DNA from: Candidatus Omnitrophota bacterium
GTDB taxonomy: Bacteria > Omnitrophota > Gorgyraeia > Zapsychrales > JANLHA01
Assembly: GCA_040753435.1 (NCBI GenBank)
Contig: JBFMEN010000052.1
Span: 129-64,128, forward strand
Reading direction: 5' to 3'
Length of the DNA: 64,000 nt
The notes under the pieces are model-generated. The model was given only the letters and a program-made list of their open reading frames with translations. It searched no databases and was not told the DNA's origin. Of this stretch, positions 15,001 to 39,000 are shown in pieces; the stretch's first letter is position 1; each line of letters begins with the position of its first letter. A program made the position numbers and the translations under genes.

Positions 15001-18000
15001 TCAAATATGCTGGAAGAAGAGTCGTCCCTGCGCGCGGAGCGGGTTGCCGCGGAAGCGGATATCAAAGAGCTGACAATATTGATTGGCGGGCTTGAAAACG
15101 AGATCTTGCTCGCGGGAAGCAATGACGCGCTGGCGGCCGCGAGAGAAGAGCAGATCAGACTGGCCCGGGAACAAAAAGCTATTCTGGAGGACAGGATTGT
15201 AAATATCGATAAACAGCTTTGGATTTATGATGTTAAACGGATCAATCCGGAGCTGTATGAAGACGCCCTGAACCAGATGGCTTCCGAATTTATTACAAGA
15301 AGCATTGATCTTCTTGACAGAATGATCGCCTTGCAAAAAGAGCAGTCTGAATTCGCGGTCAGCTCAACAACCACTCCTGTTGTCGATTTCGGCGGGCTCG
15401 ACAATGTTTATCTCGTCGATCCGGCCAAGGCAAGGATATATGCCGGTCAATTATTGAGCGACGGCGAAAAAGAGATCGAGGGAATCAGGAAGGCGATGGA
15501 AGAGAACAAGGCTGTTTTAACTCCGGAAACGGTCTTGTTGTACGATCGTTATGTCAAAGAGTTCTTCCCGCTGCGCGATGCTTATGCCGCCGCCCTGAAA
15601 GAAGCGGCAAATGCCGTTACCTCGGGAGTTCCCGAAGATATTCTCGAAGCCCACAAGAAACTGGCTTTGGCTGAAAAAGCGATGGAGAGCAAACGCGAAG
15701 AAATCTTCGGGCAACTGGAACAACTGCTGGTTAACGGAAATTATTACACGCCGGAACACACTGCTGAAGTCATGAAATGGCTGACGTTCCAGAAAGAATT
15801 GGCGATTGAAGCCGCGAGAAAATTCTTCGCCCGGCGCGGCGCCAACAATCCTCATTTCCACTTGTTGAACGCCATGACAGCGATGGCCAGGACCAATATC
15901 GGGGCCGTTAATGCCGCCAGCGCCGTTCTTGACAAACGGATGGATTTAAAGAGCCTGGAGCGCGATGTCGAAAAAGAACAGCGCAAGTCGGTAGCCTTGA
16001 TCGCCGAATATAACAGGCAGCTCCAGGATCTTGAATCGCTGCTGAAGAATGCCGCCGGCAAGACGTCAACAACAAAGTTGTCGCCGGATCAGGAGAAAGA
16101 AATAAAGACATTTGTCCGTCGTTTCCACAAGGATGAGAATTCGGTTCAGGTCGTCGGGAGCCAGCTCTTCGTCAACGGGAAACCTGTTGACGAGGCCTGG
16201 ATGCCGAAGAACGGGCGAGTGACCCAGTTCATGTCGTCTGAATTTGCCAAGGGGCAGGACGGGGTTTCCAATCCTAACAGCATTGCCGCCTGGATCAACC
16301 GGAACACCGGAATCAACACATATGTAGTCACGACAAACGCGGGCGAGGGCGAAGCTGAAAAGCAGATCTTCTTTATTGAGGTGCCTTTGAGCAGGGATGC
16401 GATTAATAAATTCGAGCACACATTCGGGGCCGGGGTCGAACAGTCCGGAAGTTTTGAAGTCCATACTCCTGACGGCCAGGGCGAATATAAAGTCGAGCGA
16501 AGCCTGATCGGCGTGGACAGCATTACAAAGGTGGGCGACAGGATAGAGTTCAGCGTTGTGGCTTTTGGAAAATTATCCGCGGAAAAAGACGGGACGAACA
16601 CGGCCGCTTTGGCCGGCACGGTCACTTACTATATGACGGATGATAAAGAAAAAGGCGTTCGTCTGGTTGCCGATTTCGGGGCCGCCGCATCCAATAAAGA
16701 TTCAGGCGACATTGAAATGTTCGACAGGGAAGGAAGAAGCATGGGGACCACCTCGTTTGATACATTTGACAGCGCCAAATATCTGAAATTCAAATTCGTA
16801 AAGCCGGTTGCCGAAGGCGTTGCCGTCGGTCTTGGCGGAGAGATCATCAGAGAAGGGGATTTCTCGGGATTGATTAAGGGCGAACAGAAGATGTACCCGG
16901 TCACAAGCGTTGACATCGATCATATTTTGAATTCCGAGACGGCAAAAGCCAGGGCCGAATATGCCGCGCAACTCGCGGTGAAGGGTATTCCTGACAGCAA
17001 TAGAAAGCAGGAACTTTATAACCAGGTATATCAGCACGTTTTGAGCAAAGAACAAATCAGAATCAAGGCCTCACTGGAGCAGGCTCTCGGCTTTGATGTC
17101 ACCCGGTTCCAGGCAAGCGTCGGACGGGTTTGGGCCAGGTATCAACGGACGGAAGGGGCCCAGTCTTACGGAGCGGGAGCAGACATTATCGATAATGGAA
17201 CGGTAAACATGGGAGCAGGAGTCTCGGTCGATCGCTTTGGCAGGCCCAATGTTACGTTTAACGGCGGATACAATGACTGGCTTTCATTCAACGCAGGGTT
17301 CAACAGCCGCACTCCCGCCCTGGCGCTGACCGTCGATCTCTTTAAACTGGTCAGCGGTCTTGGCGGCGATACTGACAGCACTGCTTTGAAAGCGCTCCAG
17401 ACTTCTGATGAATTCGGCTTCCTGTTCGCGATGAGAAAGGCCGGGGTCGACAATCCTGAAGAGGTCGTCGGGGCCATTAAAGAGTTGCGCGAAGTGTTCC
17501 TGAAGGCGGGCAGCCTGGAGGAAGCCCTCGATCATGAGGCGGTCCGGCAGAGAGGGCTTGCCCAAATATTGCGCAAGGGTGAAGTGATCCGCGCCCTGGC
17601 CATCGTTGCCAATGGAGAAGAACAATATGTGAAACATGATATTAATGAGTTTCCGGAAGCTTTCAGAGCGACGCTGTCCGTGCCCGAAGAACACACTCCG
17701 CTTAAAGAAGTGGAGACAAAAGTGACGATGACGAAGGAAAGCGCGCGTCTTAACATGGATCATGTAAGGGAAGACAGGGACCTCTTTGATTCGCCCATCT
17801 ATACATATCAGGCCACGCTGAAAATGATGAGACTCGAAGCCGATATTCAAAATAACGATAATTTCACAAGCATCTTTAGGTTCATCGGCGATCTTCCCCA
17901 GGGCGGGAACAGGACCCAGAGGAGTTTCGCCCGGACTCTCGGCAGCCTGGATGAAAACGAAAGAAAAGAGCTTTCGATCCTGAAGGACGGCAGCCGCTAT

Positions 18001-21000
18001 GGCCTGAGGTTGACCCGTGGAGGAGAGACCAGGGTCCTTCCGCTTGGCGGAGATGACACCCTTGTGATCACTCCTGAAGACGCCGAGAAAGCCGGCATCA
18101 GAAATACGACGGGCTTGCCGATCATTGTTGAAGACAAATCCATTCTGATGAACGAACTGGCGGGCTATCTTGAAAAAGGCCAGGAGGGCTATTATATCGT
18201 TCCGGGAGAAGGAATTTTCGCGATTGAAGACAGGCATCTCAATGATGATTTGACTGATGGCAATGATCTGACTGACGGCGCCATCCCGTTTGTCGACAAA
18301 GATAATGACGGCGAAAATGATGTTGTAGTTGAATTCTCTCCCGGCGCCCTGGCCAGGGTTCATAAACTGCATAACCAGATCGTCGACGGCAAAGTGGTCT
18401 TCATGACGGATGATCAGGTGTTGTGGCGGCTGCTGATTGTTAGCCCGAAGGATGTTGCCCGTGCCGATATGGCAAAGAAGGGTCTGACTCCGCCGCAGAT
18501 CGAGGAAGAGGTCCGCAAGGCCAAACAGAGCCCGCTGGTTAACATGAAGAATTATGATCCGGAGATCAAGGCGCCTTATGTGCTGGTCACCAAAGCCACA
18601 GCGGACAAGATCAGAGAAAAGATTTCAGCCAATGAAAAGGTAGATTCGTTGCGCAAGAATCTGACCGGCGAGGGCGGGATGAAGAAATCAGTCAGGGCTG
18701 CGCATGTTGAAGCGGAAATTATCTCGGCGGTAAACGACAGCATGTTCAACGAAACCAAAAAGGCTTTGGAGAACGGCGTCGGATACAAGTTCCGGTCAAA
18801 GAATGTTTCGACAGACGCTGTTGATTGCAGTGGATGGGTAAGACATCTTCTCAAAAACGCGTCCGAAACTGTCAATTTCGTCTCCGGCGCCAGTATTTTT
18901 GATACCACAAACATGCCCGTTTATGCCGCGGGTATTATCGAACACATCGCGGCCATGGCTCCTCAACCGGTTCTTTCAAATGAAGAAATAAGCGTTGAAA
19001 ACATGAGAGAAGGCATGGTGGTTGGAATAGACACTGGCCGCAAGAGCTGGGATGCCGGCCGGGAACGGGGCATTGATCATATCGCGGTCGTTTTAAGAAA
19101 TCCGGATACCGGCGAGATGATCGTTTCGGAAAGCCGTTCACAAATGGGCGTTATGACAATGGGAGCCGAAGAATGGCTTGCGGAACAAAACGCGGAAGGT
19201 CACAAGCTTTTTGCCGTTAACTTATTTGTCCCGTTAGACAGAAGAGCGGTCAAGCAAGGATTTGAAGACAGAGTTCCGAAGGCCGGGGTCAGCGATTATC
19301 CCGGGACATCAAGCGCGTTTGAAACGAAGGCGGCAAAAATTGCTGTTGACCTCGGGATGAATCCGGACGACCTGATGTCTATCATGTCCTTTGAATCCGG
19401 GTTGAATCCGAAAGCCAGAAACAGGAACGGATCAGGGGCGACGGGCTTGATTCAATTCATGCCTTCTACAGCCAGGGATCTCGGCACGACAACCCAAGCC
19501 CTCGCCGCGATGTCGGACATTGAACAGCTGGATTTCGTTTATGAATATCTGAAGCCGTTCAGAGGACAATTAGGGACAATCGAAGACGCTTATATGGCTG
19601 TCCTTTATCCGAAAGCAGTCGGGCAGGGACCAGAGTATACGCTCTTTACCGAAGAGACGGCCGCTTATAGACAGAACAGGGGATTGGACATAGACAGGAA
19701 CGGCAGCATTACTGCCGGCGAAGCGGTTGACGTCATGCTTCGTGTCAGCAAGAACCGCAGAGTCCTGGGCGGTTTTGAAACATCTCTGCCGGTCAAGGCG
19801 GGACAGGTTTATGACCTTGCCGCGGTTCAGAGAAAAGGTATGATCGGGTATTCCGGCGAGTCGATTAGCAGCAAACAAGACGGGATGACTGCGGAAACTG
19901 TCGGGAATGAGGCTGAAGAATTATCGTCAACAGAGGCCGATCCGGCAGCAGAAGTCATGGAAGCGGAAAAAGACGTGACCGGGGCTGAATTGCGCAAAGA
20001 GCTGAAAACAAAAGAAAACGAGCTTGAGGCCGTCGAGCAGGAGATTTTGAAAGGACAAAACAGGAAGGCGCTTGAACAGGATGCCGGGGAGTTGAATGAT
20101 CGACGGAAAGAAGTTGATGATGAGATTAGATTGCTTGAGGAACAGTTGAGAAAAATTTCTCTAAACAGCCGCCAGGGGAACGCGCAGCCCGCCGGCGCTT
20201 CCGCCGCTATTGCCGGCATGGTTGGAGAATTGTTATCGCCGGCCTCCGCGTTCGCGCAGAACTCGCCGTCTGCCGACGCCAGCGCAGACGCGATCAGAGC
20301 CGAACTCGACAGGAAAGTTCCGGTTCGCGGGGTGACATATTCTCCGGTTCCAGAAGGCGGAGAGAAGATGGAAGGCATTAACTGGGATAATCATTTGAGC
20401 GACATCACCTTATTGAAACAGATGGGCGTTAATACGATCCGTACGTATTATCCGATCACATCGAAAAAATTCCTCGACGCTTTGGCGAAGAATAATATCA
20501 AGGCGATTGTTAATATTCCGAATTATGATGACCGAAGAGTTTCCGGTCCGGATATCAGTACCGGCACTTATAAAAATTATATTAAACAGTTTAAGGATCA
20601 TCCGGCCATCCTGATGTGGGAATTCGGTAATGAGTATAATTATCATCCGGAATGGTTTGGCGGAAATATCAATAACTGGTACAGGATTCTGGAAAATGCT
20701 GCGCAGACCGCGAAACAAATCGATCCGACCCGTAAAGTGGCAACGGCTCACGGCGAACTTCCGGATGCCGGTGCGGTTAAAATGGCTCCGTCAGTCGATG
20801 TCTGGGGAGTAAACGTATACAGAAACGGTGATCCGACGGAAATTTATGATGCCTGGAAGCGCATGCAGGCCGGCAATCAGATCAGGAAAGGACTTCAGTT
20901 ATATATTTCCGAAACGGGAACGGACGCTTTCGACAGCAGATTCGGCAGTGAAGATCAGAGAAATCAGGCAGAGACGGCCAGGCAGATCTGGCAGAACATT

Positions 21001-24000
21001 TTCGCAAAGGCCGATCCTCAAATCTTCCTCGGCGTGACATTTATGACATTCGCCGATGAATGGTGGAAGTCCGGGAACGCTTCGACGCATGATACGCACG
21101 GCTCCGATTTAAGCGTCTCCGGAGACGGCCAGACCAATGAAGAATGGTGGGGATTCGTCGATGTGAACCGTAATCCTCGCCGGGTTTTCGAAGAATTCAG
21201 GAAGTTGTGGGGCGGTTTGGGCGAAGAGAAGAAAGATCTTGATGCGATGTCGAAGGCCGGGATCGAGAAGAGACTGGAACAGTTAAAGGCCCAGCGCGCG
21301 GATCTGGTCAAACAACAGGCGGAAAAAGCGGCCGAGCTGAAGAAAACCGAGCCGGTTGATGTTTCCAGCCTTGAAGCCAAACAGCGGATACGGCAGACGC
21401 TCAGGGCTGAAATTGAGGACATTCGTCAGAAATTATCCGCCGAAGAAAGAGAAGCCCGGCCAATCATAGGCGAACCCGATGACGGCGACGAAGAAAAAAC
21501 TCCGTCCGCGGCTTACAGCATTCCCGCGGTTGAGGAGTTTATGCGGGATAAATTCGCTGTTCCCGGTGAAAACGGAATCGAATATCTCAGACAGGAAGAA
21601 GCCGAAGCGCTTTTAGGTAAAAAGCTTAACTGGGAGCCTGGAGATACAGCTGCTAGCGACTGGAAGTTAAAAAACAAGGCGGGGGAGATTATCGGATTAT
21701 CTCAGCAGCTGCTTGATCTTAGCGCGGCTTTCAAGGCAGGCAAGTTATATTATGATGCGAAGGGCAACTTCTCATATACAGGCAATCCGGAAGACAGGGT
21801 TGTCGCAACAATCAATAATAATATGCAATTCTTCCTTCCGTTCACGCCGAGGATGATTAAAGACTATCGTGAAAAAGGCATGTACCGGTTAGACCGGCAC
21901 GAAATATTTAAATTCAACACCAAGTATGTTTACTTCCTTGATAAGAATATGAACGATCGAGGCGACGAAGGCGAGTTTAAGTATAGTGACATTCAAGAAA
22001 AGGATGAAAAATTGCTGGCGCAGGGATACCAACCCTTAAGAACCGCCAAGGTCAAAAATATTCCGATCTATGATGAAGACGGAAACTTTACTGGAGAAGT
22101 TGATACAAAGGAATACCCGATTACGATGAATGATGAAGGCCGTGCGATTTTTGATCAATGGGACAACATTCTAAGAGGCGGCAGACAAGTCTGGCACGGA
22201 GGGCTGACGTTGGCTCCGATCGGCAAGAAGTCGTATGCGGATTTGGACGGCGGCGGCGAAAAGCTTGATGAAATAACTCCGAGAGCTGTCGATGCCGAGT
22301 TTATCAGAAAGGATTACAGAGAAACCGATAATAAATATGTTTATTACCAAATCCTCGAAATCCAGAACCGTTTTAACGGCGAAGTTCGTCAGGAAATTCA
22401 GAAGATTCGCAAAGATCCGGATCATCCTGGGACAAACTATTCACGGCTAGTGAGAAAATATGAAGGCGTCTACAAAAACGGCAGCTTTGTCCCGAGGAAG
22501 GTGACGGTTTTCGGTTACAACGGATTCCATAATGTCCCAAGTACATCAACGACATATTTCACAAATGGAGAGGGTGTCATCACGGATGCTAAAGGAAATA
22601 TTCTTGATGAGAAGGATTTGAAAACAGAGTTCGATTCTCGGGCAACGACATTGGAGAAAACAGAAGCAAAGAAAAATACCGAAGGCCACATTTTCTCTAA
22701 TATTGAAAATAAGACAATCAACTTGAGTCTGGAAGAAGAAAAGGATCGGCAAGGACGCGTGATCAGAACTGTCGAAGGTGATAAAGTTTCTACTTTGTTC
22801 TATGAAGGTCCGGCCGGCGCGATTGATCTTTCATACAAAGGCGAAACCCGCGTCAATGGAAGGCTGATTGATGAAAACCTTCTCTATTATGCCAGTGGCG
22901 ACCGGATTAAAGATATCAGTAAAGCGGATGTTTATAGATTATTTAACGGTGAACATATCATCTTTTATCGTGGTTACAAGTATTATCAGATTTCTTCTGA
23001 GGAAGGGGAAGAGGTAACCATTGCCGTTCCTTATCAGCAGATCAAGAACGCGAAAGGTCAGATTATCGAGACGCGTCTTGGAAGCGGGGAATGGGAAGAC
23101 TTTGCTCCGTCAGAAAAAGGCGCCAAATTGATGAGGCCGGGAGAGCCCTTCAGCAATACATACACGACCTATAGTTTCTACCTTGATGAACTGGGCAAAG
23201 GCGCTGTTCACTGTTTTGATTCGCCGGATGTCGCTATTAAGACAGTCCGGACAGTGACCCAAAACGGAGTCGAGGAGATCGAAGCTTTTGCCAACACGAC
23301 AAGGCTGGTGGATGGAATTATCCGTTATAAAACTAAGCGCGGGCTTGTTGAAGACAGCGTTAACCAAAAGTTTGCCCAGGCAGAAGATAAGCGCAAGTGG
23401 TTATTGGATTATTTGAAAGACAGCAAGCATGAAGGAGACATTCCTTTTGGATATATTATGGAATCCAAGGATGAACGCAAAGACGGCGAAGGGCAGCTTA
23501 AGATCCTTTTGACAGACGCCAGGGAATTCAATCAATTCGGGTTTCAGAAAGACGGCGCGATCAAGTACATTACATTCCTGGATTATCCGGCTAAAGGCGA
23601 TGACCGTGTTGTCATATCCAGTGTGACGTATGAAGTAAAGCGTGACGAAGGCGGGATCATAGAGGACAGGGGCGCATATGCGGATGAAAAACAGATCGTT
23701 ACGGATGGCAATTCCCGTATAGTGATTGCAACTGTACTCGAGATTAATCGTGAAGGCCGAGAGGTTGCGGTTAAAGTTCCGGTTATTGTGACCAGTACGC
23801 ATGATGAGAGGCGTTCCAAGCAGAGCATTACGAACCGCGCGGTAAGACTTGATGATGGACGACTGCTCGCTGAATTCCATACCGGCAAGCCCCTGCGTGA
23901 TAATAAATTAATCGTGCTCTTTAATGGTCAGCAGTTGCCGGTTTCAACTGAACGCATTGATTGTTTAACTATGAAAAAGGGAGAGCCTGTTTTTGAACAC

Positions 24001-27000
24001 GGTCTCGAATCGATTAAAAACCGTTCCGCCTATAAGGAACATAAAACCGTATTGATCAAGGGCGAAACCGCTAAATATTGGGTTTATGATATTGATGCTC
24101 GCGATCATGTTGAATGGGGCGTCTACTCTTTCCGTGATAATACGGCCTTTATGGATAATGAGTTTGTGGCAGGTCATCAGATAAGGAAGGAAGTGCCATT
24201 TATTCAATTTATGGATGAAAAACAGGCAGAGGCCGTTGCTCAACGTAATGGAACATTGTATGAGAACGACATGCCGCAATTCCGTAAAGACAACCGCTAT
24301 ACTCCGCGGGTTTATTTACCGCAAAGTGAAAAGTTCAGTTCTTGGGAGTTTATTGAAAATCAAATTAATCATGTTAAGCACAACAGCTTCAGCACTAATT
24401 TCTCCTTCCGATTGCTTGATACATGGCTGACGTCGTTTAGTTTTATCTTAGGCGGCCTTGTCGGTATTCCGATTCTGACACTGATGCTGCTGCGAATGAC
24501 ATCACTCTTTATGGAACTGGTGATGAGGATTTTTGTCACTAGCAGAAAGGATGTTGTGCTGGCTAAGACAGCCAGGTTGCGGTATCGGTTGAGCGAATAT
24601 ACCAGAAAGACGATTCATGGCGAGACGAAAGAAGTTGCCAATTCTCAAGCAGCGTCGTCGCAGACAGTGACCCGCAAGGAACTGGAGGTGTGGGTTAGAG
24701 ATTTCAATTATGAGAAAACGTTTATCGATTATCTGGAAAGCAGAATTAATAGTGATGAGTTTAAAGACAAGAGCAAAGAAGAAAAGAAAAGCTTTGTTGA
24801 GAAGAGAGTGCGTTTTTGGACTAACCTGATTTGGTATCACGCCGGGCTTGGAGGCCTTTTTGTCCATATGAAATCAGGTCAGATGTATCTATTCCGTAAA
24901 GGTTTCATCTTCACTCCAACTGAATTGAAGTTCTTGATTCGATATCATAATGAAAAGGGACAAGATGTTGAGAATTTCAAGCTGAGAAACGGCCAGACTT
25001 TAGGTGAGCTGATCGAAATGGATATTTTTAAAGCCCCGATCTCGTCTATGGTCCCAGATCAACAGAAGTATTTGATCGAAGATATTGTTGACCTTATCCG
25101 CGCATATCTCCAGGAAAAATATGAAGAGAAGCGGGATGTTCGGATTCTAAAATGGACGTTTAGTGTGCGCACCAAGTTTACACTTTTCAAATATCCGATG
25201 ACTCGGATTTGGTTTAATTTTGTTACTTATCCGTCTCTGATTTTGCGCGTGTTCACATCCCGTAAGGAATTTAATAATAAAAAACTGACTGACTCTGAAC
25301 AGGCCAAGCTGAAAGTAGCCCGGCGCTTCTGGATGACGGGATTGAGTGAGTGGTTGCTTTTGAATGCTGTCCTGATTTGGGCTTCCGTTTATTTTGGCTT
25401 CGGCATTATCGACGGCTGGGTTTTTGTCGGTTCGGCCCTGATTCTGGGATTGCACCTGAAGTTGTCGTTCCGCGGCATTTTCTACTTGAATTATACGGCG
25501 GCTGAAAGGGTGCTGTCCAGAATTATGAAATACCGCGAAGTCAGAACCATGAAAGATGTTCGTCGCGTACTGCCGGAAATTCTTGAAACAGACGAAGGCC
25601 GAGAATTCTTTAATGAGGCGATCAAGTGGCTGGCCTCCGAGGGCTCATACACACATCAGCCGTATATCTCAAAAGAAAAAGTAGAGTTATTGGAAGGTAT
25701 TCTGGATGGAACGAGAAACATTGATGAGCTGAAGACGCTTGATGGTCCGGAATCAGGAGCAGGTCAATTGTTCAATGTTAAGAAGATCGGCGATGCTGAA
25801 GCGGATCAGTATCTAATTAACTGGATTAATATGTATCTCATTGATCAGATCGATATTACCTCCGAAGATCAGGTCCATCCGTTCACCATCCAGCTTTCCG
25901 GGTTTAATGAATTTGCGCGGATACGTTTTAAGGTAAAGAGCAAGGAAGATCTGAAGGTGATGAGCCGTCAAGAGTTGGAAGCGCTCAAAGAAAACAAGGA
26001 GAGGTTTGACGAGTATGTTAAAAATTTAAGCAATGACCTTGATGCTTTGGTTAGCCGAGGCTCGGTCGGAGGTATGAAGGGGGTTTTCCTTGTAGAAACC
26101 AAGTTTACCCGCATTAAGAAAACCCATATGAATCAATGGCAGTATTTTCTTGAATCCTTGGCGGAAAAAGCCGGAAAGTCAATTCCTAAAGAAGAGTACA
26201 AAGAATTGCTTGCTGTGGAGACTTCTGCGGCAGAGACATGGAGAATTCTTAATAAATTATTCAATGAGGAGGCCGAAGAGGGCAAGAAGATTAAAAATAT
26301 CGATTTTCTCATGGAAGAATTTGCGAACTTCCGCACAGAGAACTATTACAAAACTATCATGACAACGTATCAGTCAATCATCCAGCGATATCGTGTCTTG
26401 GCGCGAAGATTATTGGCTAAGAAATATTCAATAAACCTAAAAGATGTCAGTGAAGACGAGATTAACAAATGGGTTCGTTCCAGGATTCAAATGACGGTTT
26501 ATATGGATGGAGGGGCTTTCCCAGAAGATTTGGCTGGGATTTGGGCTGAACATCAGGAGGACACTCTGGAAGGTGGTTTCCGATGGACATTCGATCACCA
26601 GAAGAATTTCATGCTTATCTGGGAGAAAGCGACAGGATTATCAGCAGGAACAGAGATAGAGAGAGAATCTCTGGGGAATCCGGGAAAGACAACTTGGGAA
26701 GATCTAAAGAAAGCACTATTGAATATTATTGAAAAAGAAGAAGTTGCGAAAAATAAGAAAGACGCATTAGTTAAACTAACAAAACAATATTATAGTAATT
26801 TTGCCACTCCAGAAAACCCGGGTGACATTGTGCTTATTCAGGGTAATTTCCCGTTAATGGGAACCAAGTTCAACGGATGGGCTCAGCGTAAACCTTACAC
26901 CAAACATGAGCTCATGTTCGCTCTTGACGTTGGTCATCGTATCACGATCGGTGATATGTGGGGCCTGCCTAATGAGTTCCGCAAGTTTGAGGATCCGAAG

Positions 27001-30000
27001 CTGGCCTGGCTCTCGTTTGATTACGCGACCTACGGCGAACGATGGGGCTGGGTGACCAAGATCACGGCTTTGTCTGAACATGGGTTCAATACGATTGTCC
27101 GCGCCGCTAAAGACCTGGTCGATACGGATGTGAATGTGGGTAAAGGTCTTATGAGAAAGAGCGCTTTTGATGATATGGCCGGCCGCGAATATACCTCTGA
27201 AGATACGGCCATGAGCAATAATCAAGTCCCGGCAGGCAAGCAGTCACACTACACCCACAAGATCCGCATCATGCAGTCGGTTGAAAAGACACAAATGGAG
27301 GCCCATGGGTTTATTACCCGTTTCGGTTCGTCAGTTGTTGAAATGTTGATCAGCGGCATTCCATATCAGAAGTTCCTGAGTTCAGCGGCTCACTGGACAG
27401 TCAAGCTCGGAACGCTGTTTAGCCACGGTTTTTATGTGAACGAGACCTGGATCATCTGGGCCAATATCGTAATGGTCATTGCCGCGTATTTTCTGCCGCT
27501 TAATATTTACGCTTACCTGGCATTGCCGTATTTCGGTATCGGGCTTGGTCTTTCTCTCGCTAACGCCATCAACGCCTCCGCGCAATCGCTTCATACATAC
27601 AGATTCGGATGGTTACGCGGTGCTGTTGTTTACTTCGCCTTCTTCTGGTTGTACCTTGCCTATTACACAGCCTTCATTCCGGTGCATGATCAGAAGGTAA
27701 TGGAAGGATTGAAGCGCCAGGTTATTTTCTCTCTCAGTCCGCGTATCAGTGATTCGATACGTCATCCTGCTAAAGAAGTTTATAAGCGCTTTAAGCCTTC
27801 GATTCAGAAGGGAATTATAATTTGGGCGTTCCTGCTGTTGGCGCCGTTCCATCCCGTGGCAACTGTTATTAATATTTTCTTCTTTACCATGACCTTAAGC
27901 TGGATCTTCGCGCCGTTCCTGTTTAACTACCATCCGAAGTTATTGGCACGAATAGGGCTGGGATTGAGAGATTCTGTTTTGGGAATCTGTTTCGCGTTAA
28001 AGGATATGCCCTTCGATTTATATGCAAGGGTTAAGAAAATGATAAATGACAAGAGGTTTAGAAAACTGGTTGCAAGGAAGGCAGAAGATAATAAAAATAA
28101 AAAAGAAATAAAAGAAATTTTTGCTAAGAAAGATCCGCTGATTTTTGCCAAAAAGATGAAAGAAAAGGCAGCAGAGATTTGGAATGGTTTGGAAACAAAA
28201 GAACAGATAATTGTTGAATTAAAGATGTGTGATACGGAGGGAAAAGCTATAAAAGGTCAGAAAGAAATGATGATCCGCAACTTCTTCTTTGAACTCGTTG
28301 ATCATATTGATCAAGATGGATTGCTGCGCGATGCCGGACAAGTTTTTGACCACGCCGAAGATGCAATCATGAAGCCGGAAGGCAGAGACGCCGGGAAAGA
28401 CGCGAAGAAAGGCTCTGATACAACGCTTCGTTCCTTCGCGCTTCCGGCTGCGCTGATCACCTATGGCATGACGACCGCCAACACCAACGTCGTCGCGGCC
28501 GGTCTCTTGAGCCTCATCGCCTTCGCCGCCTGGTTCGCGCTCAGGACTCCGCTCAGATCGTTCCGGTCGATGAGTTTTGTCAAAGCGCTCTTCTCCCAGT
28601 TCGCTTTCATTTATGAACAGGGGGTCCTCAAGATCCGCGTAGAGACGACCGGGGAAGCCGATGAGACCATTGCCCGGCAAGAGAAAGCGGCCAGGGAAGC
28701 CGAAGCGGCTTTACAGACAGCATTTGCTCAGCGCCGAACGGGATCATCGCCCGTCGGCTCCGTTGTTCACACATCTGCTTCTTCCAGGAAAGAGTTAGCC
28801 TTAAGGGTCTGGCGAGATTACTTTGAAGGAAAGGTCGGGCAGGATCCGGCCATGCTGGCCGAGGTAATTGAGCTTCTCAACGCCCAGCCGGAAGTCCGCG
28901 ACGCCGCCATGATCGCCGGACCCGACAGTGAATACAGCGAGTTCTGGAGAAACGCAGCCCGCAAGGCCGCTGAAGCCGCCACCGCCGCCCAGCCGGAAGA
29001 TGACGATCAGAATCAAGAAGATAGCCGCGTTGGGCACATTAATGCTGAAACCGAAAAAGCTTTTTCGATGGAACAATCCGATAACGCCATGGTGACTGAA
29101 TCTTCTGACATTGAGTCGGACAAGAGGACGCAGGCCAAGGTTCAAGAACCGCCAATCCTTGAAGGGTATAGAAAAATTTATGAGGAGATATACAAGAAAT
29201 CAATTTCGAGGCCGTTTGGAACTAATCCTGAAAATCCGGAATTGGCGACAGACTGGTTCTTGACCGAAGAAGCTGCACTGCCGCACTTTGCTATTTTTGT
29301 TAATCCCTCACCTGAACTTGCGCAAAAAATCTTGTCCATTCAGCAGGAGTTTTTCCTTCGGTTACCGCGATCGATACAGCAAAAATTCGTCCTTATACAG
29401 CCGCATGATTTCCATGTTACGTTTACAGGCGTAAACTTTTTTAATGAAGCAACTGATTCTGAAAAAGCAGTTCGGGCGGCAGCAGAGATTGTTCAGAAAA
29501 GACAGGGATTGACGCCGTTTGAGTTGAAGCGCATTGGGGTGTTTGAAGGCGGAGCTATTATGATTGAGGCCTATCCCAAATCTGATGAATCTTTGCGTGC
29601 CTTAACAGCAATTCATCAAGAGCTGCAGCGCTCCTTAAATCGACAACCGATGTTTGCCTTGCCGTTGTTCCATCTGACCCTTGGATATATAACGACGCGT
29701 CTGACACAGGAAGAACATCAAGAATTAGTAAACATTATTGAACAGTATCGAGGGGATTTTAATTTAGAGTTTGCTTTTGATAGAGCGATGACTTACAGAT
29801 GGGATATTGACCCCGATGTGAAATCGGGAAGAGCCGCGATAACAAAAGAGAAATTTTTTGATGTGAAAGAACTGTCTGTGATCGAGATCGGGAAAGAGAA
29901 TATCAAAAATGATTCAGAAAAGAATTTTAACAACGGTTCGACGGTTCTTTCCTTCGCGTTGCCGACCGCGGTGATCGCTGCCGGAATGACAACCGCCGAC

Positions 30001-33000
30001 ACCGGGGTCGTTGCCGCGGGCCTCTTGAGCCTCAGTGCTTTCGCCGCCTGGTTCGCGTTCAAGACTCCGTTGAGAACATTCAGCCCGTTGAGTTTTGCCA
30101 AAGCGCTTTTCTCCAAATTTGCCTTCATCTATGAACAGGGAGTCCTCAAGATTCGCGTTCAGACTTCCGGCAAAGTCGACCTGGCCGCCGATGAAGCCGA
30201 GCGCAATAAAGTGGACAACTCCATAGTATCTACAGCAACGCCTTCCATTAACAAACAAACGCCTGTCGGATCGGTCGTTCATACGTCCGCTTCGTCCAGA
30301 AAAGAGTTGGCCTTAAGGGTCTGGCGCGATTACTTTGAAGGAAAGGTCGAGCAGGATCCGTCCATGATGTCCGAAGTTATCGAGCTTCTTAACGCCCAGC
30401 CGGAAGTCCGCGACTCCGCTATGATGGCCGGACCTGACAGTGAATACAGCGAGTTCTGGAGAAATGTAGCACGAAAAGCGAAAGGCGAAGAGCGAACGGC
30501 GAAGAGCGAAACGCGAAAAGATGATTCAATATCGGCCGCCGCACCTGATGATGAAGAGATCAAAGGGGAAACGATTCCGGCTGCCACCAACACCGCCATT
30601 AACACAAACACTGACACAATCACTGACACTAACACTATTCCCTCCGACGCCGCGATGATTTCCGCGATTGAAGAAAATGCAGCCGCGCTCACCGCCCAGC
30701 CGAGGGTCATTATCGTTGCGGGCGTCTCCACCGCAGTCAAGAGCAGATGCATCAACAGTCTTCTTAAGGAATTTCAGGATCGGTTTATTTCGCCTCTCCC
30801 GGTCCGCGATCAATCCATGCTTTCGAAATTAAATTCTGTTGAGGCCGTGAGACCAGTCACTGCAGCGAACACTTCCGTGGCTGGAAACTCCAAAGGGACC
30901 GGGTCCGCGGCCTCGCCGATGATTACGGGAACGGACAAAGTTGAAATCAGCGTCGAGGCAAAGATTCTGCACAGGGCCGGTCAACTGCTCGCCGGACGGC
31001 CCGCGGCGCCGGATATTGATGAACTTGTTCGTTTGTTAATGAACGATCCGGTTGTCCTGAGTCTGGCCGGATCAATGGAAGCGGCCCGCCAGATCCTTGC
31101 CGCGATGAAGGAACCGTTGAGAAAGGTTCCGGAAAATAAAACCCGAAAGGTGGAACCTGTCGAGCGGACCGATGCGGAAAGATCTTTTGATTCTGCCCGC
31201 CGCGACCAAGCCATGGTCTCGCAGGTCGCGACCGGAATTGATAAAAATAATATTGTTCAATCGGACATAACGGAGGAAAGTCCATGGAAACATTCAATGA
31301 AATTCAGGTCCGAAGCGTCTTTGATGGAAGCGAGGGACGATTTGTGGCCGCCAGTTACGATGGATGGACCTACGAGTACAGGTTCTTTATTCATCAGAAC
31401 GGCGAGATCAAAGGAAGGACGTCCGGTGATTCCTGGGTCGACATCAGCTCAAACACGGCCGGGATCATCAGATCAAAGGTGGACCGGTATCTCGGATTTA
31501 ACCCGGAAGAACAGGACGCCTGAAACATTATTCACGCGGCTTTTGAAAATAAAGTCCCGGAGTGATGAGGCGGTGTTAAGTGATTTCAGGAGCTGGAGGA
31601 TCGAAGGGTTCAGACAGGCTCCCGGATACAAGATCCAAGAAACCGGCGGCGATGCAGCGATACTCGCGGACGGAAAAGAAAGAAAAGAGGGATTGTTTGA
31701 TCTGCGAGATCGCCTGGTAAGGGAATTGGGCGAGGTTTCAACTCTTCTGGAAAGGGTCCCTCCGGCCGTCAGCATTTTCGGCGGAAACAATAGCGGGGAA
31801 AAACTTTACCTGTTAAGTTCAATCCTGGGATTTAATTTGGCCCGGCGAGGGTTCACTCTTCGGACGGGAGGCGGACCTGGAGTTATGGAAGGTCCTCTTC
31901 TGGGCGCCATCCAGGCAAGAGGAGCCTCTCTCCCGGTTAAAATAAGACTTTCTGTCGCAAGAACGCTGCTGCCGTTCCTGAAGTACGTCCCGCCGTCTGT
32001 TTCTCAACGAATTCTGTCGGGGCAAAACCAGGGATTCAAGATATACATTCCCGACCAGCCGCTGAGTCCGCATGTCGAGATTCCAGCGCATTTCACGCAT
32101 TTTATTCCGAGAAAGATTTCGTTAATGCGTGCGGTTAAAGCGATCGTTGTTTTGTCCGGTGGTTTTGGGACATTAGACGAGCTTTTTGAGTCCATGCGGA
32201 CCGACGGGCATATCGTAGCCCTTCCCTTCTGGAAACCCGTTATTAAGCAGATTGAAAAAGCCTGGGCGAACCGCGGCTGGGGAGAGACGATATCAGAAGA
32301 GATTTCCTTCAGCGAGGACCCGGAAAAGAACGACGCCGGCGAGATCTCTGCTAACATTGTTGATCTGATTGGACAAATGGACTACGAATTCAATCAAAAG
32401 AATATGGAGCTTCCGTCCGATTTGAATTCATTAAAAGCGATGATCCGTGAAGCGCACCGGGCGCTGACCAGCTTGGCATCTTTCGAGAAGGGGATTGTTG
32501 TCGCGGGGAGTTCGAACCCTGCACATATTCATGAGATTGTAATTGCCCGGAAGCTTGGAGCGTGGGCGGCTAGAAACCAGATGCCGCTGCGCTTCGGCGG
32601 GACAGGCCCGGTCACAAAGGCCGCGATTGAGGGGATGGGAAGCTGGTATGGCCGGATTCAAGCCGTCCTCATAGATGAAGATACGGGCTGCTGCAGGGAT
32701 AAAGATGTTCTAAGGCAACTATATTGGAACGGTAAAGTTATTAAAACTATTGACCGGATCATCCATAAACTCTTGTTGAAGGAAAACGTCCTGGGTCATG
32801 TGATTTTCCCCGGGACGTGGGGAACCGTGGATCTTTTGACCGATATCATGGATGTGCGGCATATTCATTATTTCTCGAACAAGAGGGTCTGGCCCCAAAC
32901 GCCGCTGATTCTGGTTGGGAGAAGGTTCTGGAATCCGATCATGGAAACCGTTTTTCAAACTCTCGAGTCCTATTTCTCGCCGGGAGGCCGCGAGATTGTA

Positions 33001-36000
33001 CAGATTGTCGACACCAGCGATGAATTACTTGCGAGACTAAATATTCTTTCTCGGGGATCGAAGGTCTTTGCTCAAACGGCAGATCTCGCTGACGAAACGG
33101 CCGGGAGAGTTCGGCAGAACATCCGCGGCGATGCAGCGATACTCGCGGACGATAAAAATTCCCGGAACACAAACGGGCCTGGATCATTTGTTCATGAAAA
33201 ACAGATGGTATGGGAATATGGAAATTCTGAAATCATGACTTCCCGCGCTCGCCGTGCCCGGAGCTTCATCGGGGAAAACCTGCAGAGAATATTGAACAAT
33301 GGATTTTATCCGCGCCCGGCGAAGGTGGTCAATCTGGGATCCGGGTTGGGAGAGTTTTCGGCTTCGCTGGCGGAGCTTGTTCCGGTCAGGATGTTTGATG
33401 TCGACATAACAAACTTTGCCGGGAGACATAACAAGTCTGTTCCCTTTGTCCAGGCGGATGAAAGACCGTCAAACAGCACGGATTTTGATAAAGATGACGA
33501 CACGCTTGTCATTCTGAAAAGATCGGCGCGGGAATGGGCGCTGAAACAGAGAACGGGATCTCTGGTTCTGCGCGGAAAGGTCCTGCCCTATGCCTATGGA
33601 ATTGTTCTCCAAAAGCCGTTGACTCAAGAGAACCGATCGTCGGATCCTGCCATCGCCGGTAGTGAGAGGCAAGCCGGAACAGACGCGGGCCTTTCAGATC
33701 TTGAACAGAACGCGAAAGACCGGGCGATGTTGACGAAGGGAGAAGAGAACGGAAAAGACGCGGCGACCGGATCCGTTAAAGGGCAGCGGACCGCAGGTAA
33801 CGACAGAAAGAAGATTGCGCTGGCGCTGAAGCTTATCGAGAACCCGGATATCAATATCATTGCAAGGCTTTTTGATGATCCTGATGAGGAGGTCCGCATC
33901 CTTGCGTCGATTGCGGGGGCCCGCTTTGTTGTTCAAAACCTGCAGGAGCTGATTGCTCATCATCTGCGCAATCCATTAACCGGTATGGGAGGTTTTATCA
34001 ACAGGATAGGAAACAAGGTCTCCCGTCCGGCAGAAACAACCGGTCCTGAGGCGATTGATCCTGACGCGGATATTCAAAGAGCCGCCAGCAAAACCAGGAT
34101 TGCCGGCAAGACGGCAGAGATTATCGGTGCCATGACCGATATCGAAAAAGATTTAAACGAAATCTGCCTCTATCAGGAAGAACAGGATGAATCGGCGCTG
34201 GATGCGTCGGTTATTTTCCTGTCGGGAGCGCTCAATGTCCTTTCGGAAAAATTCATCGCCATGGAGGGTATGCTGCGTGAGTTAAACGCGCAGGTCCTGG
34301 AATTAACGGCTCAAACCGCGCCAGCTTATATTAAGGAGAACGAGTCGATCACGAGGGCGATGGAAACGATAAACAGGGAACGCGGCCGGATCAAAGAAAT
34401 ATTCGATTCGTTGAGAGCGATGTCGGAATACAAGGATTTGGATTTTACGGAAACCAGCGTCGCGGATGTGGAGGAAGAAATCTCCGGCCTTGAAACGGAC
34501 GGCGTCAGGGAAGGGGCTCCCCTGGCCAAAAGGATTCTTTATGTCGATCCCAGGATCAGGACAGGAGAAAAACGAGTGATGGCGCCGAGAGCGCTTAAGG
34601 AGATATTGCTCCACTTCTTTAAAAATGCCGCGGAAGCAAACGCGTCAAATATCGGCCTTGCCTTCCGCGAGGAAGGGCGGCGGCTTATTGTTGAAGTTCT
34701 GGATGACGGCTCGGGCATCTCTGAGGCCGACGCACAAAGGCTCTTTTTGCCGTTGTATTCGCGGCTTTACACCAGGTCTCTTTTCCTGAGCAGACTTCAG
34801 TCTTCATTAAAAGCGATGGAAGGTAATTTGTCCGTTGATATTGCCGGCGCGGATCTTATTAGAAAATATTTTAGTGAAGCCTGGCCGCAGCCCGGTATTC
34901 ATGCGGCGATTGCCAGGGCGGCAAGGGGCAGGGAGGAAGCCCAGGACATCCTCCGCGTTCTGGTTTTGCGCGAACTTAATTACGATCAGCTTGTTGATCT
35001 CCTTGAAGGGAAAGTCAAAAACGTCGCGGACGTCGCCGAAAAAATTATCCAGAAGAGAGTATCCGTCAGATATGGAAGGAAGACAGGCAGGGAGATCCTC
35101 GGGGAATTTACGAGAAGCATTCCCGATCTTTCCGATTTTGAAATTCTGGCGCTCCTGGAAGAATCGGCGCAGTGGATGCTTCCGTCCCAGGCATTCCGGG
35201 CGATGTTGGCCTTCGGGCTTCGCGAGCTTAAAGAAGCAGAGATCTTCACGGCGCTTTCCGTTCCTCAAATCAGGGAAAAGATTATAAACAGCGGCGGGAC
35301 CGTTGATGCAGTTGTCGGGAAAATCCAGGAGTTGAGGCAAGGCGTCGCCGGTTACCATACCCGCTTCATTCTTGAGTTTCCTTTGATTTTCGACGATCCG
35401 GAACTCGTCGTCAATCTTTATGAGATGTCGAAAAATATCAACTCGTTCCATAGCGTGACGCAGAGACTCTTCGCGGGAGGGGCCGCGGAAGATATCAAGC
35501 CCGGGGAAATCAGGGATGTTCTCGAGGACATCACGCTCTTTGTCGGAGAGAGATTTGATTTCGGCCTTCGGTATTACAGCGACGCTTCGCTCAAAGGCAG
35601 CGCTGTTTATGATGAGGTTGTTTCCCATTTATCCGCGTTGCAGGATCGGCTGGAAGACTATCGCCGCGGGATTCTCAAAGGCCGGCAGCAGCCTGTTTAT
35701 GAGCAGATGAAACTGCTCGAAGATTTGCTGTTAAGGACACTTTCATTCGGGAAAAGGGCGCTGGGATGGCATTACGGCAACTCCATGAATTCTATGACAC
35801 CGTTTAAGGACATTGAACGAAGCGTCTCTTTTGCCAAAGAGCTGCTAGGATTTTCCGGCATCGATACCGGCAGTCTGAAGATCAATCTTGAGTTCGAGGA
35901 AGGGGAGCTTCCATATATTCCTGTTTTCTCATATCCCGACATCATCATGACGATTATTGAAGAGCTTTTATCGGGAGGAGTGAAGCGTGGAAGCGCGACG

Positions 36001-39000
36001 GAGATAAACATCAGGGTCGGAATGAAAAAGAACATTCTGACCGTAGAGTTCTCGGATAACCGCAAGAAGGTTTCTTATATTGATCCGAAATGCATGTTTT
36101 TGCAGAGATCCATGGGGCGCGGGCGAGGGACGGGCTTTGGTATTTTTGCCCTTCGACGGATCGTTGAGGGCGTGCTCGGAACCATGAGCATCGAAAACAG
36201 GGGCGTGACGACCAAGTTTATCGTCAGTCTTCCGGTAAGCGCGCAGCCGGCCGTTCTCGGGCTGCCGTTGTCGAAACAGTCGGGCACTTACATGTTAAGC
36301 GGCGAAGATGCCCCGGTCAAGAAGGCGCTGGCCCGATACCTGTCCGGAGCGCTCGGTTTAAGGTATATCAACGCACGCTTCCTTGAAGAGGCGGTCATTT
36401 ATGTTCTGATCGAAGAATTGCTTTTGCCGGAAATAAAGAAGGCCGGAATCAGCATGGATAATGAAAACGCGATTGATGCGTTTATTACAGAGAAAATCAA
36501 CGAGATCGAAGATTTTGTCTCCGCTTATTTGAGAGAAGACGGTGTCGACTATAGCAGGGAACCGTTAAGGATCAAAATTCATGGAGAATACCGAAATAGT
36601 GAGGGGTTGTATCTGTCCGGAGTGTTGAAAGACGTCATTAAGGAATCTTACCGGCAGGATTCCGGAAGGAAAGTCATATTTGAAAGGGTCGTTCGAATGC
36701 CGTTCTTTAAGACATTGCTGGAAACATTTATGGTTGACGGGGGCGGGAAGATCCTTGAAAACGGAGGATTTAACGGGATCATTCTGCTCAACGGTGCGGT
36801 CATCGGAAACGGAGATCTTTTGGCCAAAAAAGAAAGCGGGGCGATCCGGTTACGCGTTGACGGTGAAAAGAAGAAAGGAACAGTCTCAAGGAAATTGACG
36901 GTCTGGGACGGGAATGAAACCGGAGTCTTTGCAGAAATTGATTTGAACGCGAAGAACAGAGAAAAGATCGCGGAGGCTGTTATTCATGCCCGGCAAAAAA
37001 TGGACGGGGCCATGCTGACGGGATTGCAGGAGAAGAGAGATGCGCAACCGGACAAGTCGACGGCGGCAATTTCTTCCGGTATTTCCGGTTCGCTTAAAGA
37101 TCAGGTGATTTTGGCTAATGGCGACAGGGCCATGATTGCCGAAGGTAACGATCCGGTATTTTCGCAGATTTTGACACCTTTTGAAAAAGAGAATGATGTC
37201 ATCGTTCCAAATGTTAAAACAGGACCTGCAATCAAGCTGATTTATCAAGTGGATCATATGACTATTTCCGGGATCGTAGGGTTGTCCGAAACCAGAGAGA
37301 CTACCGGAGATTTCTTGCTCATGTCCGGGACCACGGCGGTGCGTGAAACCAGGAAGCTTGCCAGAGATTCCTTCATGCCTTTTAATCGCAAGCTGGATCT
37401 CTGGACATATGCCCCTATCGGTCTCAACCCCGTTGGCAGATACAGGAACCGGGGCATCAGTGAGACATTTTTAGCCTGGCTGTCGTTGTTGGCGTTGAGA
37501 CAAGGCTTTGATGAAATTTCCTGCCGCACCAGAGGGGTTCATAACGCCTACGTCTTCCGGAAATTCTTTGCAGATAAAGTTGTCTTTCCGTCGGGTAAAA
37601 TAATTGACATGAAGTTTTTCCCCTATGCCCTGACCAAGGCTGATAACTCCCTGCTATGGAATAAAGATGCGTTTGAGTTTTTCGGTCGACCCAGGATACC
37701 TGCGAATGTTCATATGGCATGGGCTGATTACGCGATGATTGGTTCACAAAGAACAAATTTACCGTCGACCGATTTCCGAAAGTTCCTTCTTTCCCCCGCC
37801 ATCGAGACGCCTGTGCCGGATCAGGCTACGGTGAAAAACTTATCAGACAGCGAGCCGCGATCGGAATCCTCTTCCCGGGATAATGCTGTTCTTGGCGATG
37901 CAGAAGATGATACTGAGCCGAAATATTCTTTTGGCATCACAACCAGAGGCCCGGGAGTGAGACTGGCGGTCCCGGGCGCGCCTTATAACAGGACGGAAAA
38001 ACTTGCGGATTCGGCGATGGTTACGGAAAACACGAAGCCTTTTGTAAATGATTATGTTAATGAGGAAGGGATCCGCGACGATATTGATCGGGTTATATCT
38101 GCCCTGGACGGCCTTCTGCTCAGGGATTTCTGTTCGGACTGCATGAGGAAAAAGATGCTCGCCCTGCTTGATTATCGTGGTCCCGGGGCGAATCTCGTGC
38201 GTAAGGCCGTACGGCAGGCCGTGTATTCAGCAGCCGCGTCTCTGCAAAACGGGAAACAAACAAAGGCGTCGAAAATACTCGGGATTTCAGGCGAGATATC
38301 AGGTCTTTATGAGGTCGTTATCAAGCGCGGGACGACACTGGAAGGGATTTATTTAGGGGAACTCTCGGATGTGAACGGAATCATCCGGGTGGGCGGCGTG
38401 GCGGTCAAAGAATTCGACGCGATCAGCAATAATACGGTCTTTGAATTTAAGTTCCACCTGACCCTCAGAAAACTGTACCAGCAGGTTTTCGGAATCGATT
38501 CCGCCGGCGCGTCTCATTTAAAGATTATCCGCAAGGCCGGACGGTTCCATAACATCAGAAACATTGTTTATTTCGGCGAAGTGGACTACGGGTTTGTGTC
38601 CAGGGCGATCCATGCGTTCCTGGTGAACAGGCGTCATCTCTTGCCGCGCGTTAACATTGTGAACAAGGGGTTGTCGGTAAAGTTTTCGTTAAACGAAATT
38701 AATGACTTTTTAACGAGCGAAGACGTCCTGAAACTGGTTAATGAAGAATCACGGGCCCAGGGAGCCCGCCATTATCTCGGCGACGTGATCCGGGAAAGAA
38801 AGAATATTATTACAAGGGGGATTCGAAGATTTCAGAAGGAGTTGCCGGCGTCAGCGAAGTTCGATGTAATCATCGCGATGAGTAATGCGCCGAAAGATGT
38901 TTTGAAAGATATTTCGAAACTGAAGCAAAAAACGAAGAGGCGCGATCATGCCATGTTAGTCAGGGCGACCGGCGGCGATGGATTCATGAAAACTTTTGCG

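Follow-up and report, generated by a model that had tools for sequence, protein, structure and literature searches.

A putative 2H phosphoesterase domain between two duplicated, predicted membrane-anchor modules in a giant protein of an Omnitrophota bacterium

A putative 2H phosphoesterase domain was found inside a giant open reading frame (ORF) of an Omnitrophota bacterium, where it lies between two paralogous copies, here called M1 and M2, of a module that carries a hydrophobic region. The ORF is located on the window, which is the whole stretch of 64,000 nucleotides (nt) of contig JBFMEN010000052.1 that was analysed; amino acid (aa) positions refer to the translation of this ORF and are converted to window positions by nt = 22+3(aa-1). 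The interpretation that we favour, with a probability of roughly 0.55, is that the domain is a membrane-tethered cyclic or 2'-5' phosphodiesterase within an Omnitrophota giant protein, held between two hairpin-anchor modules that descend from an old intragenic duplication. The host is assigned to the Omnitrophota because the MutS protein encoded on the window is nearest to that of Omnitrophota metagenome-assembled genomes (MAGs), with 58-63% identity to seven MAGs, six of which are labelled Candidatus Omnitrophota, and at most 47% identity to everything else. GTDB contains no species representative of this bacterium, and an exact look-up of the MutS sequence returned no record in the collection searched.

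The earlier note on this DNA had recognised the 2H domain from its two H-x-T motifs, and this call was upheld by family and structure comparisons. The 2H superfamily is defined by a domain of about 170-200 aa that contains two H-x-[ST]-x motifs (PMC5283653, which also describes E. coli LigT). Here, a domain of ~170 aa carries HVTF (nt 29413-29424; H9798, T9800) as motif 1 and HLTL (nt 29671-29682; H9884, T9886) as motif 2, which are 86 residues apart. When aa 9734-9971 were scanned alone, the 2H-clan Pfam model PF13563 (2_5_RNA_ligase2) matched with 28.8 bits (E 1.5e-6), which is above its curated cut-off of 27; the score was only 22.2 bits when the domain was scanned within a chunk of 4.7 thousand residues. 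A profile was also built from an alignment of the domain with four homologs, P0001-P0004 (five sequences, a small sample). This profile matched the solved Pyrococcus LigT-like structures 2fyh_A (E 1.1e-8) and 1vdx_A (PH0099; E 1e-6), with the FHIT and AHITLG of these proteins in register with the two 2H motifs, and also the AKAP7_NLS-domain chain 6hiv_DQ (E 4e-4). A phmmer search of the 2H segment itself against PDB sequences gave no match at E <= 10. The earlier note had named variable histidines among homologs as a sign against the call; both were instead found to be invariant in the five-sequence alignment, together with their threonines (alignment positions H64, T66, H150 and T152, corresponding to H9798/T9800 and H9884/T9886). 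Counting by domain, five of the six homologous domains keep both H-x-T motifs, the second domain of P0004 being the one without the second histidine. Judged by these comparisons, the domain is a divergent yet apparently intact 2H phosphoesterase.

Relatives of the domain are few. A phmmer search of aa 9440-10170 against 1.84 billion representative proteins returned only five matches, P0001-P0004 to the 2H domain and P0005 to the module, and the query protein itself was not among them. In a word-indexed search of 5.8 billion clusters, the 2H segment found nothing and the 2H profile found P0002 only. Taken separately, P0001-P0004 each matched a 2H-clan Pfam family (LigT_PEase, 2_5_RNA_ligase2, AKAP7_NLS or 2H-phosphodiest), and the domain is placed with them in a putative new, very sparsely populated 2H subfamily with the signature HxTLG[YF]...L[TS]xEE. 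P0001 is fused to a HAD hydrolase (phosphatase), P0003 is fused to PGM/PMM, and P0002 (L082 10001-11020) adjoins the trehalose operon genes OtsA/OtsB/TreT. In P0004, HIT-like regions were noticed by eye on the sequence. If it works like LigT/ThpR, CPDase and AKAP7-type enzymes, the domain would act by hydrolysis on a cyclic phosphate, 2',3'-cyclic or other, or on a 2'-5' phosphodiester, and its target could be a nucleotide, an RNA end or a ribose derivative. A reading as part of a defence system found no support from PADLOC, in which the 2H domain, the SLOG region described below and the module were all without a match.

For the flanking modules, the two direct repeats reported by the earlier note were recovered by the repeat finder, by a MAFFT alignment of the DNA and by protein comparison, which agreed with each other. 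The repeats form two blocks, the first at 28423-28661 and 29941-30179 (79% nt identity, spacing 1518) and the second at 28748-28967 and 30260-30479 (87% nt identity, spacing 1512). At the protein level, aa 9456-9649 of M1 and aa 9964-10153 of M2 have 67.5% identity over 194 aa (E 1.7e-89), which is far beyond chance. The description of the copies as near-identical was, however, overstated, as their DNA identity is 78-87% and their internal linker cannot be aligned. Each copy does contain a hydrophobic stretch (aa 9488-9509 in M1 and 9994-10014 in M2, Kyte-Doolittle hydropathy at least 1.88) and the conserved SSRKELALRVWRDYFEGKV...EVIELLNAQPEVRD...GPDSEYSEFWRN segment that had been pointed out, and HVTF and HLTL both lie between the copies. 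From its N-terminal side, M1 is laid out as a basic flank, the hydrophobic region with its proposed hairpin, an amphipathic stretch, VLKIRVxTxGxxD, a variable linker, VGSVVHTS and a helical core that runs to SEFWRNAARKA. A resemblance of VGSVVHTS to the G/SVVV autoproteolysis site of SEA domains was considered and dropped, as no match supported it.

The age of the duplication was estimated from a codon-level comparison of M1 with M2, made for the hydrophobic half (80 codons) and the core (74 codons). In the hydrophobic half, the nt identity was 78%, the synonymous divergence (dS) 0.66 and the ratio of non-synonymous to synonymous divergence (dN/dS) 0.24. In the core, nt identity rose to 86.5% at the same dS of 0.66, dN/dS was 0.07 and the two cores were 92% identical. 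The internal linker of 26-28 codons and both outer flanks had random-level identity between the copies. With this dS, these dN/dS values and the loss of similarity in linker and flanks, the duplication is judged to be old and to have been a single event, and both copies are under purifying selection and functionally constrained. The duplication of a larger unit, consisting of the module and its cargo, was rejected: neither the stretch ahead of M1 nor that behind M2 is similar to the enclosed segment, which leaves the module as the only duplicated unit.

The earlier note had described two copies; self-comparison of the protein revealed four further, diverged copies in tandem near its C-terminus (M3-M6, aa 12984-13785), so that the module family has six copies in one protein. 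M3-M6 have 24-27% identity to M1 and M2 and 36-74% identity among themselves. When the six-frame translation of the window was searched with a profile made from M3-M6 alone, the only further matches were M1 (independent E-value 2e-3) and M2 (independent E-value 1e-4). The motifs common to M3-M6 are WLKIRVxTxGxxD, SVVRT[ST]V..EEDQAML..W..YY.GK and HPEKYSEWF[RK]KLA. Over the whole family, these reduce to [WV]LKIRVxTxGxxD, a variable linker, SV[VI][RH]T[ST] and a helical part with W..[YF][YF].[GA]K and ...[YF].E.[WF][FW]. The hydrophobic region ahead of these motifs is present in M1 and M2 only, M3-M6 being without a clear transmembrane (TM) segment.

The module gave no match to Pfam, NCBIfam or PADLOC. 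Its sole outside relative among the 1.84 billion representative proteins, which were searched exhaustively with phmmer, was P0005 (E 9e-4, 39% identity), a fragment of 1,421 aa on a 4.3-kb MAG contig labelled Acidobacteriota. A word-indexed search of the module alignment against the 5.8 billion clusters found nothing, and pattern scans found no relatives in GTDB genomes or JGI metagenomes. The flanking module is thereby regarded as a putative undescribed domain family, found so far in two proteins only. An AlphaFold2 model of M1 from a 7-row alignment had an overall predicted local distance difference test (pLDDT) score of 55 and was confident only in the last ~65 residues (about aa 9590-9654, to just past the core), where a helical bundle was predicted with pLDDT 76-84. 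A comparison of this model with PDB by Foldseek gave a best E of 3.7 and nothing similar.

The hairpin topology that we propose is based on the composition of the hydrophobic regions and their flanks. In each of M1 and M2, the hydrophobic region is made up of two stretches of ~18 residues that are separated by a polar turn (NTN or DTG). The charges of the C-flanks are +3/0 in M1 and +2/0 in M2, and the N-flanks contain four (M1) and two (M2) basic residues, with a net charge of +1 and 0. Each module would be made of two short hydrophobic helices that form a hairpin, followed by an amphipathic segment, the conserved strand-like motifs LKIRVxTxG and GSVVHTS and a small bundle of helices. Homologous modules with a like charge pattern would be expected to insert in the same orientation. 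As no further TM segment lies between M1 and M2, the number of spans per module would then have to be even, as in a hairpin. This reading is supported by P0005, which has a clear two-segment TM hairpin (20 + 28 residues) at the position that matches the M1 hydrophobic region. With hairpins in both M1 and M2, the 2H domain would share one face of the membrane, probably the cytoplasmic one, with all module cores and with the downstream SLOG/LOG and kinase-like domains, and it would be fastened to the membrane on either side. The coordinates of these features are collected in Table 1.

Table 1. Positions of the giant ORF, the putative 2H domain and the module copies in the window
Feature	Position (nt)	Residues (aa)	Strand	Basis or remarks
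Giant ORF	22..41643	13,873 from first ATG	+	Holds M1-M6 and the 2H domain
Module copy M1	28387..28992	9456-9657	+	Repeat search, self-comparison, codon alignment
M1 hydrophobic region	28429..28548	9470-9509	+	RSFALPAALITYGMTTA-NTN-VVAAGLLSLIAFAAWFAL; proposed two-helix hairpin, basic residues on both flanks
M1 conserved core	28747..28977	9576-9652	+	86.5% nt identity to M2 core
Acidic low-complexity linker between M1 and 2H domain	28978..29280	9653-9753	+	One D-x-A-M-V site, DNAMV
Putative 2H phosphoesterase domain	29281..29796	9754-9925 (~170 aa)	+	Pfam, homolog alignment, profile search
Module copy M2	29911..30507	9964-10162	+	Built like M1
M2 hydrophobic region	29947-30066		+	
M2 core	30259-30489		+	
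M3-M6 array	38971..41376	12984-13785	+	Self-comparison, M3-M6 profile
M3	38971-39621		+	
M4	39625-40251		+	
M5	40282-40866		+	
M6	40897-41376		+	

Several observations weigh against a tethered, cytoplasmic nucleotide phosphodiesterase, or against parts of it. The 2H domain had no match in NCBIfam at E <= 10, and because of this it is classed as a member of the 2H superfamily and not as an orthologue of LigT/ThpR. Its single-sequence AlphaFold2 model was of low confidence (pLDDT 51) and retrieved only noise from PDB by Foldseek; the order of strands and helices in the same model is compatible by eye with a 2H fold. Because 2H relatives are fused to, or lie beside, sugar-phosphate enzymes, a non-nucleotide cyclic phosphate is a possible substrate, and a sugar or ribose cyclic phosphate is as conceivable as a nucleotide or an RNA. 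For the module, none of the family and structure comparisons indicated a function. Regarding the topology, M1 has a short first hydrophobic segment (~15-18 residues) with a mean hydropathy of ~1.3, which was modelled by AlphaFold2 as a helix of 10 residues. In addition, the homologs P0001, P0002, P0004 and P0007 begin with hydrophobic, signal-peptide-like segments, which hints that the 2H subfamily may work outside the cytoplasm.

The last two observations could also be explained by an out-and-back loop, in which each module spans the membrane only once, the M1 core and the 2H domain are in the periplasm or outside the cell, and M2 returns the chain. The domain could then be involved in the scavenging of extracellular or prey-derived cyclic-phosphate nucleotides or RNA. 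Such a loop would agree with only one segment per module being above the usual hydropathy threshold, and with the presence in the giant protein of domains for cell-wall degradation, whose place of action must be extracellular; prey degradation and uptake have been proposed in the literature for giant Omnitrophota proteins. However, it would place the two highly similar cores, with a dN/dS as low as 0.07, in different compartments, it would need homologous modules with the same flank charges to insert in opposite orientations, and a +3 C-flank outside would break the positive-inside rule. The clear hairpin of P0005 at the homologous place argues against it as well, as does the presence of M3-M6 in the TM-free C-terminal region together with the kinase-like domains. 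We therefore regard the out-and-back loop as rather unlikely, while keeping it in view as a minority explanation.

A short peptide motif, with the fullest form D-x-A-M-L-[TS], recurs in the giant protein. D.AML was found 11 times compared to 0.13 expected (aa 1166, 1684, 2183, 9608, 11233, 12328, 12975, 13115, 13327, 13351 and 13538), and D.A[MI]L 17 times compared to 0.56 expected. The motif is present within module cores, the M1 core including both DPAML and DAAMI, and in the linkers that follow M1 (DNAMV, nt 29080-29094) and M2 (DAAMI, nt 30646-30660). Since the third codon positions of the motif vary freely, the constraint is at the level of the peptide and not of the DNA; a signal in the DNA, for example an internal translation start preceded by a Shine-Dalgarno sequence, was rejected for this reason and because no common upstream sequence was found. 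All 24 of the D.[AS]M[LIV] sites are located outside aa 3188-9607 (nt ~9583-28842), a stretch that makes up 46% of the protein, and the probability of this by chance is ~4e-7. The motif-free stretch carries the M23, SLT and GH2 domains, and the sites are found only in the N-terminal ~3,200 and the C-terminal ~4,300 aa, with flanks that are slightly more polar than the background.

Outside the giant ORF, DAAML/DSAML occurs twice in each of two large secreted proteins encoded downstream (nt 42238-47196 and 47287-49881), and the motif occurs five times in P0005, the sole outside homolog of the module. P0004 has a related linker motif, D-x-A-A-[IVLM]-G, which was found eight times compared to 0.35 expected. 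The seven MutS loci (Omnitrophota-type) nearest to that of the window had no D.A[MI]L in their ORFs. D-x-A-M-L may be a candidate recognition or processing site in the giant protein. A more speculative extension would be that the module and D-x-A-M-L-[TS] together form a punctuation system of giant proteins, providing sites for a dedicated factor, for example a protease by which the polyprotein is cut into separate enzymes tethered to the membrane. In this case, the 2H domain, lying between M1 (with DNAMV in the linker behind it) and M2 (with DAAMI in the linker behind it), would be released as a unit of its own. We consider such a system improbable.

Another possibility is that the domain is an inactive 2H-like domain, in which the fold has been kept as a binding or scaffold module without catalysis. 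In many LigT enzymes, a basic residue is found two positions after the second HxTL, and the subfamily described here has Tyr/Phe two residues after it (HLTLGY). The loss of the second histidine from the second copy in P0004 also points in this direction. Both H-x-T motifs of the domain are nevertheless intact with hydrophobic x positions, they are invariant in the other five homologous domains, and the Pfam threshold was passed. An inactive domain is thus quite improbable.

The earlier note had further suggested that a cassette was inserted into the gene by duplication or recombination, and this was weakly supported: the module, and not the enclosed segment, has been duplicated and there is a contrast in composition, but a recent or mobile event was not supported. 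The G+C content at third codon positions (GC3) is 0.692 in M1, the highest of any 180-codon window of the ORF, and 0.633 in M2, compared to 0.401 (7th percentile) in the 2H segment, which suggests a mosaic origin and a different history of the 2H segment. GC3 varies from 0.24 to 0.69 along the giant ORF (mean 0.52, standard deviation 0.078), with only 0.28 at aa 2501-3000, so that a mosaic composition is general in this ORF. Such heterogeneity could reflect a mosaic origin or GC-biased conversion between repeats.

For a mobile or recombination-bounded cassette, either a 2H segment recently inserted between duplicated targets or one that can be excised in frame by recombination between M1 and M2, it could be argued that the repeats are in frame, as both offsets (1518 and 1512 nt) are multiples of 3, so that recombination would leave an intact hybrid module, and that exact DNA matches of 29 nt (the longest), 24 and 22 nt exist between the copies. 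Against this, the dS and the purifying selection on both copies indicate an old event, the repeat finder reported no inverted repeats, no recombinase or transposase was matched by Pfam in the scanned neighbourhood, and no second 2H copy was present in the six-frame translation of the window. The cassette, which the earlier note had proposed to look for elsewhere in the genome, was thus seen only once in the window; the repeats are functional coding modules that are also found, as M3-M6, in tandem without cargo. A mobile cassette is therefore very improbable, and the arrangement is best read as the usual gain and duplication of domains in a giant protein.

With regard to the rest of the giant ORF, its frame is open from nt 1 (a fragment of 13,880 aa in frame +0 of the six-frame translation), and for this reason the start of the gene may be upstream of the window and the protein longer than 13,873 aa. 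A Kyte-Doolittle scan detected at least 13 hydrophobic segments. Pfam matches include an M23 peptidase-like domain (aa ~3966-4036, under the cut-off), an SLT/lysozyme domain (aa ~6444-6492) and a GH2 TIM barrel (aa ~6785-7053). Directly downstream of M2, there are two SLOG/LOG domains ('Lysine_decarbox', LDcluster4; nt 31765-33039, aa ~10582-11005), followed at nt 33952-36237 by two HATPase_c domains and a weak HisKA match under the Pfam cut-off. The position of the 2H domain next to nucleotide-binding SLOG/LOG domains is a hint of a nucleotide-processing section in the giant protein.

Just upstream of M1, a weak, sub-threshold match to PF02364 (1,3-beta-glucan synthase component; E 0.0035, 16 bits) was seen at nt ~27760-27933 (aa ~9247-9304), within a multi-TM block at aa 9137-9326. 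A membrane machinery that resembles a glycosyltransferase may be formed by the large TM-rich stretch at aa ~8100-9300. A second internal duplication is located at nt 1897-2502 and 2731-3336 (aa 626-827 and 904-1105), where self-comparison gave 36.8% identity over 204 aa (E 3e-36), and a D-[EQ]-A-I-L site is found shortly after each of its copies (aa 836 and 1115).

The genes downstream of the giant ORF include MutL, MutS, KDPG aldolase and a pilin-like protein. Three consecutive paralogous proteins are also encoded downstream on the + strand, at nt 42238-47196, 47287-49881 and 49887-53036 (1652, 864 and 1049 aa), the first two being the motif-containing secreted proteins mentioned above. All three have a signal peptide and a common N-terminal domain (…LNLPxPG…YxPxLIKGITIYPDNPLKFDFI…YFLASLTVPxxExWVNLSPYEKDR), which is also present in P0004. 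A C-terminal TM segment is present in two of the three, and the first has a CofD-like region. Scans of the window for tRNA genes and Rfam families were negative.

Compared with known systems, the domain is closest to the archaeo-bacterial LigT group (PF13563, PF02834; 1VDX/1VGJ PH0099, 2FYH), with which it agrees in size (~170 aa) and in having both H-x-T-x motifs in register, and from which two-histidine hydrolysis of a cyclic phosphate or 2'-5' phosphodiester would be expected by analogy. Unlike LigT, it is not a stand-alone protein but part of one of at least 13,873 aa, and it has its own subfamily signature and relatives linked to HAD, PGM/PMM and trehalose genes. The relation to the central domain of AKAP7/AKAP18 (PF10469), seen in the profile match to 6hiv_DQ and in the match of the homolog P0004 to PF10469, is much weaker than that to archaeal LigT, and there is no sign of 2'-5' oligoadenylate biology in this bacterium. 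The AKAP7 domain is, like the one described here, a 2H module within a larger protein.

Giant, TM-rich, multi-enzyme proteins of the 'Archaeovorin' type have been described from Omnitrophota (West-Roberts et al. 2023, bioRxiv 10.1101/2023.11.21.568195; Nielsen & Lui 2026, bioRxiv 10.64898/2026.06.07.730766), and HATPase_c and Lysine_decarbox are among their frequent domains in this literature. The protein studied here resembles them in coming from an Omnitrophota genome, in an ORF of >10,000 aa with many hydrophobic segments, in its cell-wall hydrolase domains together with HATPase_c and Lysine_decarbox/LOG, and in its domain repetition, which without recent nucleotide tandems is the rule in Omnitrophota giants (Nielsen & Lui 2026, 10.64898/2026.06.07.730766). 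It differs from the published giants in the 2H/LigT domain and the module, neither of which is mentioned in West-Roberts et al. or Nielsen & Lui. SecA-DEAD, dockerin and HEAT/TPR domains had no Pfam match at E <= 0.01 in the 13,873 aa within the window, upstream of which the N-terminus may lie. No close relative of the giant protein was found in the libraries searched.

To summarise, the 2H domain and the module are probably variation within known kinds, the domain passing the motif, profile and conservation tests for the 2H superfamily and failing that for LigT/ThpR orthology. So far, the finding chiefly bears out that domain duplication and membrane punctuation belong to the normal features of these giant proteins. 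With the 2H domain, a predicted processing of nucleotides or cyclic phosphates joins the enzyme activities known from Omnitrophota giant proteins, and the module represents an undescribed family that is kept by selection in six copies within one protein. West-Roberts et al. (10.1101/2023.11.21.568195) state that their analysis was blocked by missing information on cleavage points. If the module and D-x-A-M-L mark processing or assembly sites, they would supply this information, and whether giant proteins are one chain or many pieces would become testable by N-terminomics.

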